Source: Escherichia phage vB_Eco_F31. From it: DNA of 64,000 nucleotides. The translations under genes were made by a program, and so were the position numbers. The notes below the pieces were generated by a model, which ran no database searches, was not told the origin of the DNA, and saw nothing but the letters and a program-made list of their open reading frames with translations. Below, piece by piece: positions 2,391-49,760 of the stretch; within the stretch, counting starts at the first letter, position 1; every line of letters starts with the position of its first letter. The stretch is from the sequence record OP870147.1. The stretch is one strand, 5' to 3'.

Positions 2391-3959
2391 ATGACTACTA
2401 TCAAAACTAAAGCTCAGCTCGTAGACAAATGGAAAGAACTGCTGGAAGGTGAAGGCCTGCCGGAAATCGCTAATAGCAAGCAGGCTATTATCGCTAAAAT
2501 CTTCGAAAACCAGGAAAAAGATTTCGAAGTATCCCCTGAATATAAAGACGAGAAAATCGCTCAGGCATTTGGTTCTTTCTTGACCGAAGCTGAAATTGGT
2601 GGTGACCATGGTTATAATGCTCAGAACATCGCAGCAGGTCAAACCTCTGGTGCAGTAACCCAAATTGGGCCGGCAGTTATGGGTATGGTTCGTCGTGCTA
2701 TTCCTAATCTGATCGCTTTTGATATTTGTGGTGTTCAGCCTATGAACAGCCCTACCGGTCAGGTATTTGCTCTCCGTGCAGTATATGGTAAAGACCCTAT
2801 CGCTGCTGGCGCTAAAGAAGCTTTCCATCCGATGTATGCCCCAGACGCGATGTTCTCTGGTCAGGGTGCTGCTAAGAAATTCCCAGCTCTGGCTGCTGAC
2901 ACTACTACTGTTGTAGGTGATATCTATACTCACTTCTTCCAAGAAACTGGTACTGTATATCTGCAAGCTTCTGCTGTCGTAACACTTGATTCTAGTGCAA
3001 CTGATGCAGCTAAATTAGATGCAGAAGTTAAGAAACAAATGGAAGCTGGTGCACTGGTAGAAATCGCTGAAGGTATGGCTACTTCTATCGCTGAACTCCA
3101 GGAAGGTTTCAACGGTTCTACCGATAACCCATGGAATGAAATGGGCTTCCGTATCGATAAACAAGTTATCGAAGCTAAATCTCGCCAGCTGAAAGCTGCT
3201 TACTCTATCGAATTAGCACAAGACCTCCGTGCAGTACACGGTATGGATGCTGATGCTGAACTGAGCGGTATTCTGGCTACAGAAATTATGCTAGAAATCA
3301 ACCGTGAAGTTGTTGATTGGATTAACTACTCAGCACAGGTTGGTAAATCCGGTATGACCCTGACTCCGGGTTCTAAAGCTGGTGTATTTGACTTCCAGGA
3401 CCCGATTGATATCCGTGGTGCTCGTTGGGCCGGTGAAAGCTTTAAATCTCTGTTGTTCCAGATTGATAAAGAAGCAGTTGAAATTGCTCGTCAAACCGGT
3501 CGTGGTGAAGGTAACTTCATTATCGCTTCCCGTAACGTAGTTAACGTACTGGCTTCAGTTGATACTGGTATTTCTTACGCTGCACAGGGTCTGGCTTCTG
3601 GTTTTAATACCGACACTACTAAGTCTGTATTTGCCGGTGTACTTGGTGGTAAATACCGCGTATACATCGACCAGTATGCTAAACAGGATTACTTCACCGT
3701 TGGTTACAAAGGCGCTAACGAAATGGATGCAGGTATTTACTATGCTCCTTACGTTGCACTTACCCCGCTGCGTGGTTCCGATCCTAAGAACTTCCAGCCG
3801 GTAATGGGCTTTAAAACTCGTTACGGTATCGGTGTTAACCCGTTTGCTGAAAGTTCCCTGCAGGCTCCAGGTGCTCGCATCCAGTCCGGTATGCCATCTA
3901 TCCTGAACAGCCTTGGTAAGAACGCTTACTTCCGCCGTGTATATGTAAAAGGCATCTAA
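2391..3959 (+). CDS. 23: Major capsid protein gp23
   Basis: 522-aa ORF; N-terminus MTTIKTKAQLVDKWKELLEGEGLPEIANSKQAIIAKIFENQEKDF and C-terminus ...GKNAYFRRVYVKGI recognised as near-identical to T4 gp23; followed by UUCG hairpin terminator. Confidence 0.97.
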   Translation: MTTIKTKAQLVDKWKELLEGEGLPEIANSKQAIIAKIFENQEKDFEVSPEYKDEKIAQAFGSFLTEAEIGGDHGYNAQNIAAGQTSGAVTQIGPAVMGMVRRAIPNLIAFDICGVQPMNSPTGQVFALRAVYGKDPIAAGAKEAFHPMYAPDAMFSGQGAAKKFPALAADTTTVVGDIYTHFFQETGTVYLQASAVVTLDSSATDAAKLDAEVKKQMEAGALVEIAEGMATSIAELQEGFNGSTDNPWNEMGFRIDKQVIEAKSRQLKAAYSIELAQDLRAVHGMDADAELSGILATEIMLEINREVVDWINYSAQVGKSGMTLTPGSKAGVFDFQDPIDIRGARWAGESFKSLLFQIDKEAVEIARQTGRGEGNFIIASRNVVNVLASVDTGISYAAQGLASGFNTDTTKSVFAGVLGGKYRVYIDQYAKQDYFTVGYKGANEMDAGIYYAPYVALTPLRGSDPKNFQPVMGFKTRYGIGVNPFAESSLQAPGARIQSGMPSILNSLGKNAYFRRVYVKGI

Positions 3960-3983
3960 TCTTAATTGATTAAATCTTATTTT

Positions 3984-4008
3984 GGGAGACTTCGGTCTCC
4001 CATTTTTG
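3984..4008 (+). terminator. Intrinsic terminator after gene 23 (UUCG tetraloop hairpin + U-tract)
   Basis: GGGAGACttcgGTCTCCCatttttgg. Confidence 0.75.
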
Positions 4009-4011
4009 GTT

Positions 4012-4281
4012 TTATTTCTGTGCAATTTCGATGTAAGTTTTCAAAATATTTTGCCAATTAGGCATACCTTCTTGGACATATGCTGGAGAACCGTCTTTGT
4101 TTTTGAATGATGCAAGTTTATCAGTGGCCCAATAACCTTTAGCTCGAGCTTCAGAATCAACTTTCATCCATACTTTGTTGAAGGCATTACCATTAACTTT
4201 TGCACCATATTTTTCTACTAACTTAACTGCTTCAGCTTCCAGAACTTTTAAAGTATCTCTTAAGAAACGTGCTTTAGTCAT
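4012..4281 (-). CDS. Hypothetical 89-aa protein, antisense to the late capsid genes, in the slot occupied by segD in T4
   Basis: ORF with RBS GAGGAG upstream of ATG and its own early-type promoter at 4312-4341; no recognisable similarity from memory. Confidence 0.5.
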   Translation of the reverse strand: MTKARFLRDTLKVLEAEAVKLVEKYGAKVNGNAFNKVWMKVDSEARAKGYWATDKLASFKNKDGSPAYVQEGMPNWQNILKTYIEIAQK

Positions 4282-4311
4282 TTTGTTTACTCCTCTGTAG
4301 TTGATAAGTCT

Positions 4312-4341
4312 ATAGTATCACATACCAAATACGTTGTAAAC
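4312..4341 (-). promoter_or_regulatory. Early promoter (GTTTAC-N18-TACTAT) for the 4012..4281 gene
   Basis: Minus strand GTTTACaacgtatttggtatgtgaTACTAT; back-to-back with late promoter P24. Confidence 0.5.
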
Positions 4342-4347
4342 AATCTT

Positions 4348-4355
4348 TATAAATA
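4348..4355 (+). promoter_or_regulatory. Late promoter TATAAATA (gene 24)
   Basis: Exact TATAAATA 28 nt upstream of the gene 24 ATG. Confidence 0.6.
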
Positions 4356-4382
4356 ATCTATATCACATAAGGAAAAAATGCA

Positions 4383-5666
4383 ATGAGTAAAATCCAAAAA
4401 TTATTGCGTGAATCTACAACGTCTACTAGCAACTCAATTGGTCGCCCAAATCTCGTTGCTTTGACTCGCGCTACGACTAAATTAATATATTCTGACATTG
4501 TAGCAACACAAAGAACTAATCAACCTGTTGCTGCTTTTTATGGTATCAAATATCTTAACCCAGACAACGAATTCACATTTAAAACCGGTGCTACTTATGC
4601 TGGCGAAGTTGGATATGTAGACCGAGAAAAAATTACTGAACTCACAGAAGAATCAAAAGTCACACTAAATAAAGGTGATTTTTTCAAATATAATAATATC
4701 GTCTATAAAGTGTTAGAAGATACACCATTTGCAGATATTCAAGAAAGTGATCTAGAATTAGCTCTTCAGATTGCAGTCGTTCATTTAAAGGTACGGTTAT
4801 TTTCAGATGCAGCGGTAACAAGCAAATTTGAAAGCTCTGATAGCGAAATTTCTGATGCAAGATTCCAGATTAATAAATGGCAAACTTCAGTCAAATCTCG
4901 CAAACTTAAAACTGGTCTCACGGTTGAATTAGCGCAAGATTTGGAAGCGAATGGATTTGATGCCCCTAACTTCTTAGAGGATTTGCTTGCTACTGAAATG
5001 GCTGATGAAATTAATAAAGATATTCTTCAGTCTTTAATTACTGTATCGAAACGTTATAAAGTTACTGGAATTACTGACACCGGATTTATTGACTTGAGCT
5101 ATGCATCCGCTCCAGAAGCAGGTCGTTCATTATATCGAATGGTGTGTGAAATGGTATCACACATTCAAAAAGAGACAACTTATACTGCAACGTTTTGTGT
5201 AGCCTCAGCTCGTGCAGCTGCTATTCTTGCTGCTTCTGGTTGGTTAAAACATAAGCCAGAAGATGACAAGTATCTTTCACAAAATGCTTATGGATTCTTG
5301 GCAAATGGATTACCTCTTTACTGCGATACCAACAGCCCGTTAGATTATGTTATTGTGGGTGTTGTAGAAAATCTCGGCGAAAAAGAAATTGTAGGGTCCA
5401 TCTTTTATGCTCCATACACTGAAGGAGTAGATTTAGATGACCCAGAACATGTCGGTGCTTTTAAAGTTGTAGTTGATCCAGAAAGCTTGCAACCGTCTAT
5501 CGGATTATTGGTTAGATATGCCTTATCAGCAAATCCTTACACAGTAGCAAAAGATGAAAAAGAAGCGAGAATAATTGATGGCGGGGACATGGATAAAATG
5601 GCAGGACGTTCAGACTTGTCTGTTTTACTCGGTGTTAAGCTACCAAAAATTATCATTGATGAATAA
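4383..5666 (+). CDS. 24: Capsid vertex protein gp24
   Basis: 427-aa ORF, paralog-like relative of gp23, preceded by TATAAATA at 4348-4355, followed by bidirectional hairpin; T4 synteny. Confidence 0.9.
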   Translation: MSKIQKLLRESTTSTSNSIGRPNLVALTRATTKLIYSDIVATQRTNQPVAAFYGIKYLNPDNEFTFKTGATYAGEVGYVDREKITELTEESKVTLNKGDFFKYNNIVYKVLEDTPFADIQESDLELALQIAVVHLKVRLFSDAAVTSKFESSDSEISDARFQINKWQTSVKSRKLKTGLTVELAQDLEANGFDAPNFLEDLLATEMADEINKDILQSLITVSKRYKVTGITDTGFIDLSYASAPEAGRSLYRMVCEMVSHIQKETTYTATFCVASARAAAILAASGWLKHKPEDDKYLSQNAYGFLANGLPLYCDTNSPLDYVIVGVVENLGEKEIVGSIFYAPYTEGVDLDDPEHVGAFKVVVDPESLQPSIGLLVRYALSANPYTVAKDEKEARIIDGGDMDKMAGRSDLSVLLGVKLPKIIIDE

Positions 5667-6813: not shown

Positions 6814-7065
6814 TTAGAACTTGATTTCTATCCAATGACCATCACGCTGGTCGTGATTAATTTTATACTGAAAGCCATTATCACGTAACCACTGCCCGAC
6901 TTGCTCAGTGATAGTTAAATCATTCTTTGACGGGTAGTACGTGAATTGTGTCTGGCCTTTATCAGCGGCTTTCTCTGCCATCACAGAGAAGTTAGTAATA
7001 AAATCACTCAACAAATTAGCTTTAGTGGCCAGAGCCCTTTCTCTTAATTCCTGTGCAAAACTCAT
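6814..7065 (-). CDS. Hypothetical protein (T4 24.2 position)
   Basis: 83-aa ORF between rnlB and hoc. Confidence 0.5.
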   Translation of the reverse strand: MSFAQELRERALATKANLLSDFITNFSVMAEKAADKGQTQFTYYPSKNDLTITEQVGQWLRDNGFQYKINHDQRDGHWIEIKF

Positions 7066-7262
7066 TTCTTCACCTTTTTGTTAATCAAACGTTTACGGTA
7101 TACAACTTTTTCTTTTGCTTTAAACTTTGACCGAGCTGTCTCGGCTTTAGTCCATAGTAATCCAACTTCTTTAGGTTGTAAACCGATTTTTTGAGCAATT
7201 TCTACGAATGAAAATCCCGCCTCATGTAATGTATAAACTTCAACTTCAGCTCTCATAATCAA
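7062..7262 (-). CDS. Hypothetical small basic protein, possible helix-turn-helix (T4 24.3 position)
   Basis: 66-aa ORF, stop overlaps next start; segment FSFVEIAQKIGLQPKEV resembles an HTH. Confidence 0.45.
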   Translation of the reverse strand: MIMRAEVEVYTLHEAGFSFVEIAQKIGLQPKEVGLLWTKAETARSKFKAKEKVVYRKRLINKKVKK

Positions 7263-44609: not shown

Positions 44610-44874
44610 AAAGCTCGACTACCTCTTCGTTTTCAGCTTCAAATTGGTCACGAGCGTCTTTATGATAAAGAGCTAACAAACGATTAAACATTTTTCCATC
44701 GACACCAAGCTCTTCTTTAGCACGAGTACGAATGTCTTTAATCAGTTCATTATAACCAGAAATTTTAAGTTTGTTATCGGAAGCTTCCTTGACTAGTTTA
44801 GCCAGTTCTTCACCATGCACATCTTGATTAAATTCAACTGCTTCTTTCTTAGCCATGTTTACCTCAGAATTCAT
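44587..44874 (-). CDS. dsbA: Double-stranded DNA-binding protein DsbA
   Basis: 95-aa ORF between rnh and 33; call by synteny. Confidence 0.7.
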   Translation of the reverse strand: MNSEVNMAKKEAVEFNQDVHGEELAKLVKEASDNKLKISGYNELIKDIRTRAKEELGVDGKMFNRLLALYHKDARDQFEAENEEVVELYDTVFTK

Positions 44875-45781
44875 TAATTACACTTGTTAATTTAGAAAGA
44901 CCAGATTTTACAAAGTATGAATAAATCTTGCCTTTAGGTTGTGGTTTATATGAGTTATAATACTCTATAATGGTTGAAGCAATATTATCAGGGATATAAT
45001 CAAAATCAATGAGAACCAAATTTTCTTGATACCGTTTATATTCTTCTGCACTTAATAATACTTCAGCTTGAGAACGATCGTTGGCAATTGCTTCAATAAT
45101 CGTTGTTTTCATGCTCGGAGTTCGTTCACCATCAACTCTGGTAAACCAGAAGTCACCACGAACTCGAACCGATGCAACGCCGTCTTTACGGTCACCTTTA
45201 AGAATTTTAGTCATGCAATCAATTTCAGCAGAACCGTTCTTAATTTTAACCCATTTTTTCTGTGGTGGCGACCACTGTTTAACGTTAGGATATTTGTGTA
45301 ATTGTGTAAAGTCACCATCTGATGCAACAATACATACTTTATGTCCGGCTAATGACAAATATTTAGTTAATACACCGATATGGTCATCCGCTTCATACTT
45401 GTCAATATCCATTACAACGTATGGCATGTATTTCTTAATCTCATCAACAACTTGATGGAGTGCAGTAAAATATCCTTCCCAATCCCACTTTGAAGCTTCA
45501 CGATCGGTTTTACGATTTTTCTTGTAATAGTAAGCAAAGTCACGACGCCAATAACCCGAAGTAGCATTATCCATACACAATACAAATTTTGTATAGCCTT
45601 GCTTACGGAACATCACTACGTTTTTACGAATTGAATTCAAGATTACATGGCGAACCATCGGAACGGTAATTTTATCGCCGTCTTCAAAGTTGTTTAATGC
45701 GGCTGCCAATGCAATGTTACTAAAGTCAGCAAGTGCAATACCTTCTTTGTAATCTTCATCCAACATCATTTCTAAATCCAT
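44864..45781 (-). CDS. rnh: RNase H (5'-3' exonuclease / flap endonuclease)
   Basis: 305-aa ORF (T4 Rnh 305 aa) with FEN-family acidic clusters; early promoter 45814-45843 upstream. Confidence 0.9.
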   Translation of the reverse strand: MDLEMMLDEDYKEGIALADFSNIALAAALNNFEDGDKITVPMVRHVILNSIRKNVVMFRKQGYTKFVLCMDNATSGYWRRDFAYYYKKNRKTDREASKWDWEGYFTALHQVVDEIKKYMPYVVMDIDKYEADDHIGVLTKYLSLAGHKVCIVASDGDFTQLHKYPNVKQWSPPQKKWVKIKNGSAEIDCMTKILKGDRKDGVASVRVRGDFWFTRVDGERTPSMKTTIIEAIANDRSQAEVLLSAEEYKRYQENLVLIDFDYIPDNIASTIIEYYNSYKPQPKGKIYSYFVKSGLSKLTSVINEF

Positions 45782-45813: not shown

Positions 45814-45843
45814 ATAGTAACACACTCATTTGAAAGCGTAAAC
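45814..45843 (-). promoter_or_regulatory. Early promoter for rnh, back-to-back with late promoter P34
   Basis: Minus strand GTTTACgctttcaaatgagtgtgtTACTAT. Confidence 0.5.
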
Positions 45844-45846
45844 TGG

Positions 45847-45854
45847 TATAAATA
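45847..45854 (+). promoter_or_regulatory. Late promoter TATAAATA (gene 34)
   Basis: Exact TATAAATA 31 nt upstream of the gene 34 ATG. Confidence 0.6.
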
Positions 45855-45884: not shown

Positions 45885-48800
45885 ATGGCCGACATCAAAC
45901 GTAAGTTCAGAGCCGAAGACGGTCTGGACGCCGGTGGCGACAAGATTGTTAACGTAGCATTAGCCGACCGTACAGTAGGTACTGATGGCGTAAACGTTGA
46001 CTTCCTGGTACAAGAAAACACCGTTCAAGTATATGATTCTACGCGTGGATATAACAAAGGATTTGTTGTTCTTTATGACAACCGTTTATATCAAGCAATA
46101 AATGATATCGTGTCTCCTTCCGGGGCATTTAACCTTTTACAATGGCGTGCAGTTCGTACTGATGCACAATGGATAACTGTCGCTTCTGGGACTTATCAAC
46201 TTTCTTCAGGTGAATCTATTTCGGTTAACACTGGTGCCGGCAATGATATGGTTTTCACGTTGCCAAATACGCCGGTTGATGGTGATACTGTTGTTTTGGC
46301 TGATATTGGTGGAAGAACCGGGACAGTTAAAGTACAGATTAACGCGTCTGTGCAGAGTATTTTAAACTTTAGAGGTGAACAAGTTCGTACAGTTTTAATG
46401 ACGCGCCCACGTTCACAACTATTGTTTGTGTTTAGTAATCGTTTGTGGCAGATGTATATTACCGATTATGGTAAAGAATCAATCACTGTTACACCTGCGT
46501 CACCATATCAAGCACAAGCAAATGATTTTATCGTTCGTCGTTTTACTAGTGCAGCACCAATCAACATTACACTTCCACGTAATGCTAACAACGGTGATAT
46601 AATCCACCTAGTTGATTTAGATAAATTAAACCCACTGTATCATACAATTGTTAAAACATTTGATGATACAACGTCTATTGGTGAAGTCGGGACTCATATT
46701 GCCGAAGGCAGAAATGACTCTGACGCGTTTTTTGTTTTTGATGCTGCAAGTAGTTTATGGCGTATATGGGAAGGCGACCAGAAATCGCGTCTTCGTATTA
46801 TCCGTGCGGATTCAAATATTCGTCCAAATGAAGAAGTTCTTATTTTTGGCACAAATAACGCTACAGCCGGAACTATTAATCTTACGCTGCCCACCGGAAT
46901 TTTGAGTGGTGACACTGTTAAAATTTCAATGAACTACATGCGTAAAGGCCAAACAGTAAAAATTAAAGCTGCCGAAGGTGATACAATTGCTTCTTCTGTT
47001 GCATTGCTTCAGTTCCCTAAACGTTCTGAATATCCACCTGATGCTCAATGGGTCTCTGTTACTGAACTAGAATTCAATGGCACTACTTCATATGTTCCTG
47101 TATTAGAATTAGCGTATATCGAAGACACTGATTCTGACACTCACTATTGGGTTGTGCAACAGAATGTCCCTACAGTAGAACGTGTTGATGCCGGAACTGA
47201 TGCTACACGAGCTCGTTTAGGTGTTATTGCTCTTGCTACTCAAGCGCAAGCAAATGCTGATTTAGAGAATACTCCAGCTAAAGAAGTGGCTATTACTCCT
47301 GAAACGTTGGCAAATCGTACAGCAACTGAAGCTCGACGTGGTATCGCTAAAATTGCTACAACAGCACAAGTTAACCAGAATTCCACTGCAGCATTTGTGG
47401 ATGATACTATTGTTACGCCTAAAAAATTAAATGAGCGTACAGCAACTGAAACTCGTCGTGGTCTTGCTGAAATTGCTACTCAGGCTGAAACTGATGCCGG
47501 TCTTGATGACACAACGATTATTACACCTAAGAAATTGCAGGCACGTCAGGGTTCTGAAACACTATCTGGTATAGTTAAATATGTATCAACTACTTCTGCT
47601 ACACCTGCCGCGACTCGTGGAGCTGCAGGTACTAACGTTTATAATAAAACCGTAAATAATTTAACTATTTCTCCTAAAGCCCTTGACCAATATAAAGCAA
47701 CTTATTCTCAACAAGGTGCAGTAATTTTAGCTGTTGATAGTGAAGTAATTGCCGGCCAATCTCAAGCAGGTTATTCTCACGCTGTAGTAACTCCTGAAAC
47801 ACTACATAAGAAAACTTCCACAGATGGACGTATCGGTTTAATTGAAATTGCTACACAAGCAGAAACTAATGCTGGGACTGATTATACACGTGCAGTAACG
47901 CCTAAGACGTTAAATGATAGGAAAGCTACGGAAGGATTATCCGGCATAGCCGAACTTGCTACGCAAGTTGAATTTGATACTGGAACTGATGATACTCGTA
48001 TCTCAACTCCACTGAAAATTAAAACTCATTTTGATTCTTCTGACCGTACCAGTGTTAATTCTGATTCCGGACTTATTGAAGAAGGAACCTTGTGGAACCA
48101 TTATACTCTTGATATTTCTAAAGCAAATGAAACACAACGTGGTACACTTCGAGTAGCGACTCAGACAGAATCTAATGCAGGAACTTTAGATGATGTTCTT
48201 ATTACTCCTAAAAAGCTTTTAGGGACTAAGTCAACTGAAACGTCTGAAGGCGTAATTAAGGTTGCTACTCGGGCCGAAACTGTAACAGGAACTTCTGCTA
48301 ATACTGCTGTATCGCCTAAGAATTTAAAATGGATTGTCCAGAATGAACCAACATGGGCTGCTACTACGGCAATTCGTGGATTCGTTAAAACTTCATCTGG
48401 TTCAATTACATTCGTTGGTGACGATACTCAAGGTAGTACCCAGGATCTGAATCTTTACGAGAAAAATAGTTATGCTATTTCTCCATATGAATTAAACCGT
48501 GTACTTGCTAACTATTTGCCATTAAAAGCAAAAGCTGCTGACGCAAATTTATTAGATGGCATAGATTCATCTCAGTTCATTCGTAGGGATATTGCACAGA
48601 CGGTTAATGGTTCACTAACCTTAACGAAACAAACTAATCTGAGTGCCCCTCTTGTATCATCTAGTACTGCTACATTTGGTGGTTCAGTTTCGGCAAATAG
48701 TACATTAACTATTTCTAATACTGGAACGGCAACTCGTCTGATTTTTGAGAAAGGACCTCAAACTGGAACTAACCCAGCGCAGACGATGTCTATCAGAGTT

Positions 48801-49760
48801 TGGGGAAATGAATTTGGTGGTGGTTCAGATACAACACGTTCTACTGTATTTGAAGTTGGTGATGAAACGTCTAATCATTTTTATTCTCAACGTAATAAAG
48901 ATGGGAATATAGCGTTTAGCATTAATGGTACTGTGATGCCAATAAACATTAATGCTTCCGGTTTGATGAATGTTAATGGCGTTGCAACATTTGGTCGTTC
49001 AGTTACTGCTAATGGCGAATTCATTAGTAAGTCTGCAAATGCTTTCAGAGCAATTAGTGGTGATTACGGATTCTTTATTCGTAATGACGCTGCTAATACC
49101 TATTTTATGCTCACTGCATCAGGCGATCAGACCGGCGGATTTAACGGATTACGTCCTTTAGCTATTAATAATGCATCCGGCCAAGTAACGATTGGTGAAG
49201 GCTTAATCATTGCCAAAGGTGCTACTATAAATTCAGGTGGTTTGACTGTTAACTCGAGAATTCGTTCTCAGGGTAATAAAACATCTGATTTATATACCCT
49301 TGCGCCAACATCTGATACTGTAGGATTCTGGTCAATTGATATTAACGATTCAGCCACTTATAACCAGTTCCCAGGTTATTTTAAAATGGTTGAAAAAACT
49401 AATGAAGTGACTGGGCTTCCATACTTAGAACGTGGCGAAGAAGTTAAATCTCCTGGTACATTGACTCAGTTTGGTAATACACTTGATTCACTTTACCAAG
49501 ATTGGATTACTTATCCAACAACTCCAGAAGCACGTACAACCCGTTGGACACGTACATGGCAGAAAACTAAAAATTCTTGGTCAAGTTTTGTTCAGGTATT
49601 TGATGGTGGAAACCCTCCTCAACCTTCTGATATTGGTGCTTTACCTTCTGATAATGCAACAATCGGAAACTTGACAATAAGGGATTTCTTAAGGATTGGT
49701 AATGTCCGCATTATTCCAGACCCTGTGAATAAATCTGTTAAATTCGAGTGGATTGAATAA
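45885..49760 (+). CDS. 34: Long tail fibre proximal subunit gp34
   Basis: 1291-aa ORF (T4 gp34 ~1289 aa), repetitive beta-rich sequence, TATAAATA at 45847-45854. Confidence 0.93.
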   Translation: MADIKRKFRAEDGLDAGGDKIVNVALADRTVGTDGVNVDFLVQENTVQVYDSTRGYNKGFVVLYDNRLYQAINDIVSPSGAFNLLQWRAVRTDAQWITVASGTYQLSSGESISVNTGAGNDMVFTLPNTPVDGDTVVLADIGGRTGTVKVQINASVQSILNFRGEQVRTVLMTRPRSQLLFVFSNRLWQMYITDYGKESITVTPASPYQAQANDFIVRRFTSAAPINITLPRNANNGDIIHLVDLDKLNPLYHTIVKTFDDTTSIGEVGTHIAEGRNDSDAFFVFDAASSLWRIWEGDQKSRLRIIRADSNIRPNEEVLIFGTNNATAGTINLTLPTGILSGDTVKISMNYMRKGQTVKIKAAEGDTIASSVALLQFPKRSEYPPDAQWVSVTELEFNGTTSYVPVLELAYIEDTDSDTHYWVVQQNVPTVERVDAGTDATRARLGVIALATQAQANADLENTPAKEVAITPETLANRTATEARRGIAKIATTAQVNQNSTAAFVDDTIVTPKKLNERTATETRRGLAEIATQAETDAGLDDTTIITPKKLQARQGSETLSGIVKYVSTTSATPAATRGAAGTNVYNKTVNNLTISPKALDQYKATYSQQGAVILAVDSEVIAGQSQAGYSHAVVTPETLHKKTSTDGRIGLIEIATQAETNAGTDYTRAVTPKTLNDRKATEGLSGIAELATQVEFDTGTDDTRISTPLKIKTHFDSSDRTSVNSDSGLIEEGTLWNHYTLDISKANETQRGTLRVATQTESNAGTLDDVLITPKKLLGTKSTETSEGVIKVATRAETVTGTSANTAVSPKNLKWIVQNEPTWAATTAIRGFVKTSSGSITFVGDDTQGSTQDLNLYEKNSYAISPYELNRVLANYLPLKAKAADANLLDGIDSSQFIRRDIAQTVNGSLTLTKQTNLSAPLVSSSTATFGGSVSANSTLTISNTGTATRLIFEKGPQTGTNPAQTMSIRVWGNEFGGGSDTTRSTVFEVGDETSNHFYSQRNKDGNIAFSINGTVMPININASGLMNVNGVATFGRSVTANGEFISKSANAFRAISGDYGFFIRNDAANTYFMLTASGDQTGGFNGLRPLAINNASGQVTIGEGLIIAKGATINSGGLTVNSRIRSQGNKTSDLYTLAPTSDTVGFWSIDINDSATYNQFPGYFKMVEKTNEVTGLPYLERGEEVKSPGTLTQFGNTLDSLYQDWITYPTTPEARTTRWTRTWQKTKNSWSSFVQVFDGGNPPQPSDIGALPSDNATIGNLTIRDFLRIGNVRIIPDPVNKSVKFEWIE

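Follow-up and report, generated by a model that had tools for sequence, protein, structure and literature searches.

A small basic protein gene in a predicted early-promoter cassette between capsid genes 23 and 24 of a Mosigvirus, with relatives in T4-like and rV5-like phages

Gene content of the gene 23/24 locus

The window analyzed here, a 64-kb stretch of Escherichia phage vB_Eco_F31 (OP870147.1), belongs to a Mosigvirus (RB69-like) genome. Positions 3900-4420 were 99.8% identical to phage PhAPEC2, and a DNA search found 120 phage records covering at least 80% of that interval. Most Mosigvirus records contained two places matching this query. The features of the locus, all between or within the two capsid genes, are as follows:

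2391..3959, plus strand: gene 23, encoding the major capsid protein; borders the slot on the left
3983..4012, plus strand: intrinsic terminator of gene 23, an 8-bp GC-rich hairpin (3983-4002) followed by a T run
4012..4281, minus strand: 89-aa ORF with its stop codon, orthologue of RB69ORF188c and member of phrog_6003
4279-4281, minus strand: ATG start codon of the ORF, read from the sequence
4290..4295, minus strand: Shine-Dalgarno sequence GAGGAG, 8 nt upstream of the ATG, read from the sequence
4312..4341, minus strand: predicted T4-type early (sigma-70) promoter of the ORF, from direct reading, a consensus scan and a motif count
4312-4317, minus strand: -10 box TACTAT of this promoter, with an upstream TGn
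4336-4341, minus strand: -35 box GTTTAC(A) of this promoter
4348..4355, plus strand: late promoter box TATAAATA of gene 24, which itself starts 28 nt downstream, at 4383
4383..5666, plus strand: gene 24, encoding the capsid vertex protein; borders the slot on the right

A first-pass annotation had described an 89-aa minus-strand ORF with a good ribosome-binding site and its own promoter, back-to-back with the late promoter of gene 24. Both parts of that description were borne out, the ORF with exactly the sequence quoted there and the promoter by direct reading as well as by the consensus scan. The ORF fills the spacer that runs from the gene 23 terminator, whose hairpin bounds the cassette downstream, to the late promoter of gene 24. 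Its overlap with late coding sequence is zero, so that calling it antisense to the most highly transcribed late region was an overstatement; it would be antisense only to transcripts reading through from gene 23 to gene 24.

Promoter architecture

The consensus scan read the predicted promoter of the ORF as TTTACA-17-TACTAT with an upstream TG. Across the 64-kb window the motif GTTTAC-N16-19-TAYNAT was matched 14 times, in every case on the minus strand, against 0.58 matches expected from shuffled sequences, and the match upstream of the ORF is therefore not attributable to chance. It has the attributes of a T4-type early promoter, namely the -35 box, a spacer of 17-18 nt, a -10 box with TGn, an A/T-rich upstream region and placement on the early-gene strand, and it appears to be an ordinary member of the early-promoter class of this phage, with transcription predicted to start near 4305. 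Elsewhere in the window, an early-promoter motif at 7154-7183 (minus strand) lies inside a 66-aa 24.3-like ORF (7062-7262, minus strand), where it may act as an internal promoter for the downstream 24.2-like ORF (6814-7065, minus strand).

The early -35 box and the late box, on opposite strands and back-to-back, are 6 nt apart, and the late box probably sits where the A/T-rich (UP-like) upstream element of the early promoter would be. In an alignment of four orthologous loci (with VR7, JS98, and 04086), the -35 sequence GTTTACA and the complementary late box were invariant and a -10-like box was retained. An SD-like sequence was found at the same place in homologous loci, and the terminator hairpin was common to the orthologous loci, the stem in VR7 differing in sequence and still pairing.

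A conserved protein family

The ORF product matched the phrog_6003 profile over its full length (residues 1-89 of 90 profile positions, E = 2.1e-45). This family, which carries the label unknown function, was also matched by the JS98 homologue and by the homologues P0016, P0021, and P0023, the last two of them divergent. The existence of the gene is not new, as it has been annotated as hypothetical since the RB69 genome: existing record annotations of the ORF read “hypothetical protein” only, and the PhAPEC2 orthologue is annotated “similar to RB69ORF188c.” In the literature, strings reading “ORF188c” in PMC1524935 proved to denote ORFs of 44RR and RB49, not of RB69, and were set aside. The gene was absent from what literature searches on RB69 and Mosigvirus transcriptomes and on accessory-gene screens returned, and these searches gave neither transcript or protein data for it nor Mosigvirus RNA data. 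Two homologues bear functional names, “NADPH-dependent curcumin reductase CurA” for P0006 (a JGI name) and “glycosyl hydrolase family 25” for H65 of phage EAWsc9, and the searches made here gave no support for either.

By tblastn, the protein was found in about 240 phage records, half of them at least 80% identical (the Mosigvirus type) and half less than 60% identical; more than 200 records annotate it. Homologues in Dhakavirus (JS98 and 04086), Gaprivervirus (VR7), and uncultured T4-like phages shared the slot, the strand, and the promoter layout, and a scan of IMG/VR gave nine loci of Dhakavirus/Gaprivervirus-type identity. A profile search of 1.84 billion representative proteins listed 10 at an E value of at most 0.001, mostly full-length or fragmentary members of the family; two giant hits (P0022 and P0024) were rejected as artefacts, being Big_2/filamin repeat proteins in which weak scores sum up.

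Between the window and Dhakavirus, Gaprivervirus, and the uncultured T4-like phages, identity was 30-38% for the ORF product. For the two named genera it was 30-37%, with gp23 at 84% and gp24 at 70%, and the ORF protein evolves fast. Full-length homologues of about 30% identity nevertheless keep their length and frame in at least five lineages, and codon analysis gave pN < pS in every pair compared. The sole pair with unsaturated synonymous sites, JS98 versus 04086, gave a pN of 0.047 and a pS of 0.276, for a dN/dS of 0.14. By these comparisons the ORF is a real, conserved, and selectively constrained protein gene. Its history departs from that of the capsid genes, since the two are of different types in the phage that carries P0006: there gp23 and gp24 were 91-94% identical to those of VR7 and JS98 (91-92% for a Dhakavirus-like gp23), and the ORF was of the Mosigvirus type, 62% identical to that of the window and 29-30% to those of VR7 and JS98.

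Frameshifted copies of the ORF occur in phages mogra and 310Ecol104PP. In mogra (L024 201-469) the loss of one nucleotide from an A5 run breaks the frame into two annotated CDSs, and this could be either a true loss-of-function allele or a homopolymer sequencing error. Because this lesion is a single base in such a run, we give the frameshifted copies little weight as evidence of dispensability, and they suggest only weakly that the gene may be dispensable.

Predicted structure of the ORF product

The protein is small and basic (pI 9.6), and 10 of 11 family members have a pI of 9.2-9.8 and no Cys. It is predicted to be soluble and cytoplasmic, without Cys, a signal peptide, or a membrane segment, and its earlier description as a small soluble-looking protein with no GIY-YIG or HNH motif agreed with a Pfam scan, which found neither domain. 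AlphaFold modeled it as an alpha-alpha-beta-hairpin-alpha fold with a mean pLDDT of 93. In a viral structure library, the sole Foldseek match was a member of the same family, as an independently predicted model (TM 0.85), and a Foldseek search of the PDB gave no match at E < 1. Six polar residues (N30, G31, N32, N35, S57, and Q70) are invariant; their role could be purely structural.

Sequence searches of the PDB, with the single sequence and with the family profile, returned only chance-level matches (an RFC1 BRCT domain and designed helical proteins), and scans with Pfam, NCBIfam, and PADLOC gave nothing above threshold. An RFC1-like BRCT domain was rejected on the score of the single sequence (E = 0.076) and of the family profile (E = 0.93), and the BRCT topology of beta-alpha-beta-beta-alpha-beta-alpha does not fit the predicted one. 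Pfam DUF4859 was likewise rejected, at 17.9 bits against a gathering threshold of 22.6 and with a match of any kind in 2 of 14 family members. Homology and structure-prediction searches, proposed in the first-pass annotation as a way to examine the protein, yielded a family and a confident fold but no homology or structural match that would give a function.

Homologues in rV5-like phages

Divergent family members were not confined to T4-like phages: P0021, P0026, P0027, and a homologue in ABPH49 lie in Vequintavirinae-like (rV5-like) genomes, where they sit within long series of small ORFs that share one strand and have no known domains. At the one such locus inspected for it (contig L007), the family gene had its own sigma-70-like promoter, TTGAAT-17-TATTAT, and a hairpin terminator, and stood beside other small units of this kind. 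In the rV5-like loci examined, no gene called near the ORF had a nuclease domain, and no capsid-domain gene was called. The occurrence of the family in rV5-like phages, with a promoter and terminator of its own at that one locus, separates it from a capsid-specific role.

Occupancy of the slot in other phages

Comparison with T4 confirmed that the slot is the one in which T4 carries segD, on the same minus strand as the ORF. The accompanying view of the slot as hypervariable did not hold for this lineage, as the same family occupies it across Mosigvirus, Dhakavirus, Gaprivervirus, and their uncultured relatives, with homologues between genes 23 and 24 in the latter two genera and in uncultured contigs answering the question of whether other T4-like phages carry the gene at this place. 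In other genera (Tequatrovirus Sf21, Karamvirus myPSH1140, and Jiaodavirus KP182) the slot is empty and about 83 bp long; the terminator hairpin leads straight to TATAAATA, with no GTAAAC box or early promoter, and the promoter therefore belongs to the inserted cassette and not to the backbone. In Acinetobacter phage KARL-1, gene 24 is immediately preceded by a Hef-like endonuclease gene that lies on the opposite strand. On this evidence the spacer between genes 23 and 24 acts as a well-delimited landing pad that is either empty or holds the ORF cassette, a SegD-like gene, or both. Beside the slot, two tandem copies of gene 24 (24a and 24b) were seen in Dhakavirus, Gaprivervirus, and related uncultured phages (loci L002, L003, L008, and L011); the window has one copy.

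Like the ORF, T4 segD lies on the minus strand behind homologous upstream sequence, TATTTATAAAG-TT-A/GTTTACA ... TGnTAYTAT, and is followed by a similar gene 23 terminator hairpin, although the proteins are unrelated, segD encoding a free-standing GIY-YIG homing endonuclease. In the T4 sequence (L005 7233-7300, minus strand), TATTTATAAAGTTATTTACA-N17-TATTAT with TGn matched the Mosigvirus promoter in both position and sequence. According to a 2010 review, no segD-specific promoter had been identified (PMC2988022).

Association with SegD-like homing endonuclease genes

In Mosigvirus LF82-35, the slot holds a homologue of the ORF together with an annotated homing endonuclease gene whose product is 58% identical to T4 SegD. 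In Dhakavirus 04086 (OR842557; L004 2771-3442), we identified an unannotated SegD-like ORF of 223 aa that starts 3 nt after the stop codon of the family gene, the same distance as in LF82-35, and SegD-like genes also adjoin the ORF in IME08 and ATK47. (Gene 23 of 04086, at L004 3502-5061, is annotated as a truncated CDS; the full 519-aa ORF is present.) With SegD-like genes adjoining it in several genomes, the ORF is not the counterpart of segD, and its presence beside the endonuclease gene in these four phages argues that the ORF is the resident and the endonuclease gene the invader.

LF82-35 was also informative about how alleles move. Its DNA matched the window at 97% identity over gene 23 and at 94.6% over the stretch from the promoter to the end of gene 24, and showed no DNA similarity in the block of ORF plus endonuclease gene (L015 1171-2100). 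The ORF product in this block was 97% identical to that of 04086 and 32% identical to that of the window. The upstream junction of the exchange falls at the ribosome-binding site and ATG, between a common ...ACAGAGGAG and the ATG, and the downstream junction lies near the stop codon of gene 23. A Dhakavirus-type ORF allele and the endonuclease gene were thus swapped together into a Mosigvirus backbone, and the block looks like a co-conversion tract of endonuclease homing. Recombination at a conserved promoter and stem-loop would also fit, as in the promoter early stem-loop (PeSL) cassettes of T4-type phages (PMC2839356).

These observations bear on the possibility that the ORF is tied to a homing endonuclease, either as a remnant of one or as a passenger that SegD-like co-conversion keeps (for instance, because it carries or adjoins the homing site) at no benefit to the phage. 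The arrival of the LF82-35 allele in company with an endonuclease gene, the placement of SegD-like genes directly after or adjoining the ORF in four phages, and the way T4 segD occupies this slot, likewise oriented and preceded by a homologous promoter-like sequence, all speak for such a tie. We nonetheless consider it unlikely. As to a degenerate remnant, which the first-pass annotation had named as an outcome that would count against its reading, profile comparison of the ORF family with T4 SegD gave a probability of 2%, neither GIY-YIG nor HNH was found, and the two genes exist side by side, so that neither can be a remnant of the other. As to a passenger, 38 records have a SegD-like gene with 80% or more identity to the LF82-35 copy, as opposed to about 240 with the ORF, the ORF is under purifying selection, and the rV5-like loci have no called nuclease-domain gene near it.

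Comparison with known cassettes and a candidate function

The locus is best described as a self-contained early cassette, consisting of a predicted promoter, a ribosome-binding site, and the 89-aa ORF, that is inserted in the spacer bounded by the terminator of gene 23 and the late promoter of gene 24. Support is good for the gene, for its early promoter, and for its nature as a cassette. It resembles the PeSL ORFan cassettes of T4-type phages (Arbiol et al. 2010, PMC2839356) in having a strong sigma-70-like early promoter with A/T-rich sequence upstream, a Shine-Dalgarno sequence, an orphan ORF that is small and probably non-essential, and a boundary marked by a GC-rich stem-loop. Differences are that it lies within the conserved late head-gene module and not in a hyperplastic region, that it is a single cassette and not an array, and that the stem-loop, instead of being part of the promoter, is supplied by the gene 23 terminator beyond the distal end of the ORF. 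Here a promoter and a stem-loop do bound the ORF, and the LF82-35 junction, which falls between the -10/SD region and the ATG, is equally explicable by endonuclease-driven co-conversion; PeSL crossovers were reported at the same kind of position (PMC2839356). The homologue on L007, with its own sigma-70 promoter and hairpin terminator, is likewise reminiscent of phage morons, which are autonomous promoter-gene-terminator units defined in temperate lambdoid phages and expressed from the prophage (PMC2839356), whereas the ORF is an early gene of a lytic phage. In kind, then, this is an ordinary, already annotated accessory gene, an early-promoter ORFan cassette of T4-type phages.

What such a gene might do is suggested by its likeness to a class of T4 proteins. 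Early in infection, T4 makes small proteins for host takeover and counter-defence, among them AsiA, Arn, Dmd, and Acb2/Vs.4. Taken as a class, these match the ORF in size (about 60-95 aa), in early expression, which is predicted in its case, in apparent dispensability, and in being fast-diverging and patchily distributed. The ORF product has no match in sequence or in structure among solved structures. Anti-restriction proteins that mimic DNA are acidic, in contrast to the basic ORF family. Unmodified host RNA polymerase would transcribe the ORF in the first minutes of infection, and its product would act stoichiometrically by binding a host macromolecule; the positive charge kept across very divergent alleles would favour nucleic acid or an acidic protein surface as the partner. 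The product would then be a dispensable factor in host takeover or counter-defence, and the accessory, anti-defence, or takeover function suggested in the first-pass annotation is plausible. This reading draws on resemblance of class (size, timing, rapid divergence, and horizontal spread) and not on homology, and we hold the full statement, in which an early, dispensable, basic cytoplasmic protein serves takeover or counter-defence by binding host nucleic acid or an acidic protein, with moderate confidence. If the protein is directed at the host or its defences, it would add a family without known structural relatives to the small phage effectors.

A wider and more tentative proposal is that phrog_6003 may be an unrecognized family of early effectors, with a fold absent from solved structures, that is shared horizontally between T4-like and rV5-like coliphages and neutralizes a conserved component or defence system of E. 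coli, its alleles being shuffled between genera by SegD-like endonucleases. If so, endonuclease homing would be a vehicle for the exchange of counter-defence alleles. Two points alone are new here, and both mildly so: the link of allele exchange with endonuclease homing, and the promoter-like sequence that precedes T4 segD.

Alternative roles for the locus

Each of the rival explanations, including the tie to a homing endonuclease considered above, is contradicted by at least one line of evidence. The selected function could reside in the DNA or RNA, the ORF being incidental: early transcription would block the gene 24 late promoter or produce antisense RNA, and so keep genes 23 and 24 from being expressed too early or by read-through. 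With 6 nt between the early -35 box and TATAAATA, the two forms of the polymerase cannot bind at once. The minus-strand copy of the terminator hairpin still forms and has no U tract after it, and early transcripts may therefore run antisense into gene 23, which may have an effect at the RNA level. The same layout also recurs in the window, where an early promoter at 45814-45843 (minus strand) stands back-to-back with a late TATAAATA box at 45847-45854 (plus strand), this pair being flanked by an rnh-like gene (44864-45781, minus strand) and a gene 34-like long tail fibre gene (45885-49760, plus strand). An Rfam scan of 3900-4450 found no match near threshold. We judge a role of this kind to be improbable, as purifying selection acts on the protein and its predicted fold is confident, rV5-like phages carry the family too, at places far from capsid genes, and many T4-like genera, along with Tequatrovirus Sf21, have neither the promoter nor the ORF in the slot.

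A role as an accessory to head assembly, such as a chaperone or regulator of gp23 or gp24, would explain the linkage to the two genes, for wherever a T4-like genome carries the ORF, in three or more named genera as well as uncultured lineages, it lies strictly between them. Such a role is still very doubtful, given that the ORF is on the opposite strand behind an early and not a late promoter and that T4, Sf21, Karamvirus, and Jiaodavirus lack it despite having homologous genes 23 and 24. The rV5-like homologues, moreover, lie in small-ORF arrays with no capsid-domain gene called in the loci examined, and the PhAPEC2 record labels the neighbours of the ORF as structural virion proteins and not the ORF itself. 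Finally, a chance reading frame in an AT-rich spacer, which the shortness of the ORF and its exclusively “hypothetical protein” labels might suggest, is refuted by the comparative data, namely full-length homologues of about 30% identity with the same length and frame in at least five lineages and pN < pS, as well as by a pLDDT of 93 and the match to phrog_6003 at E = 2e-45.
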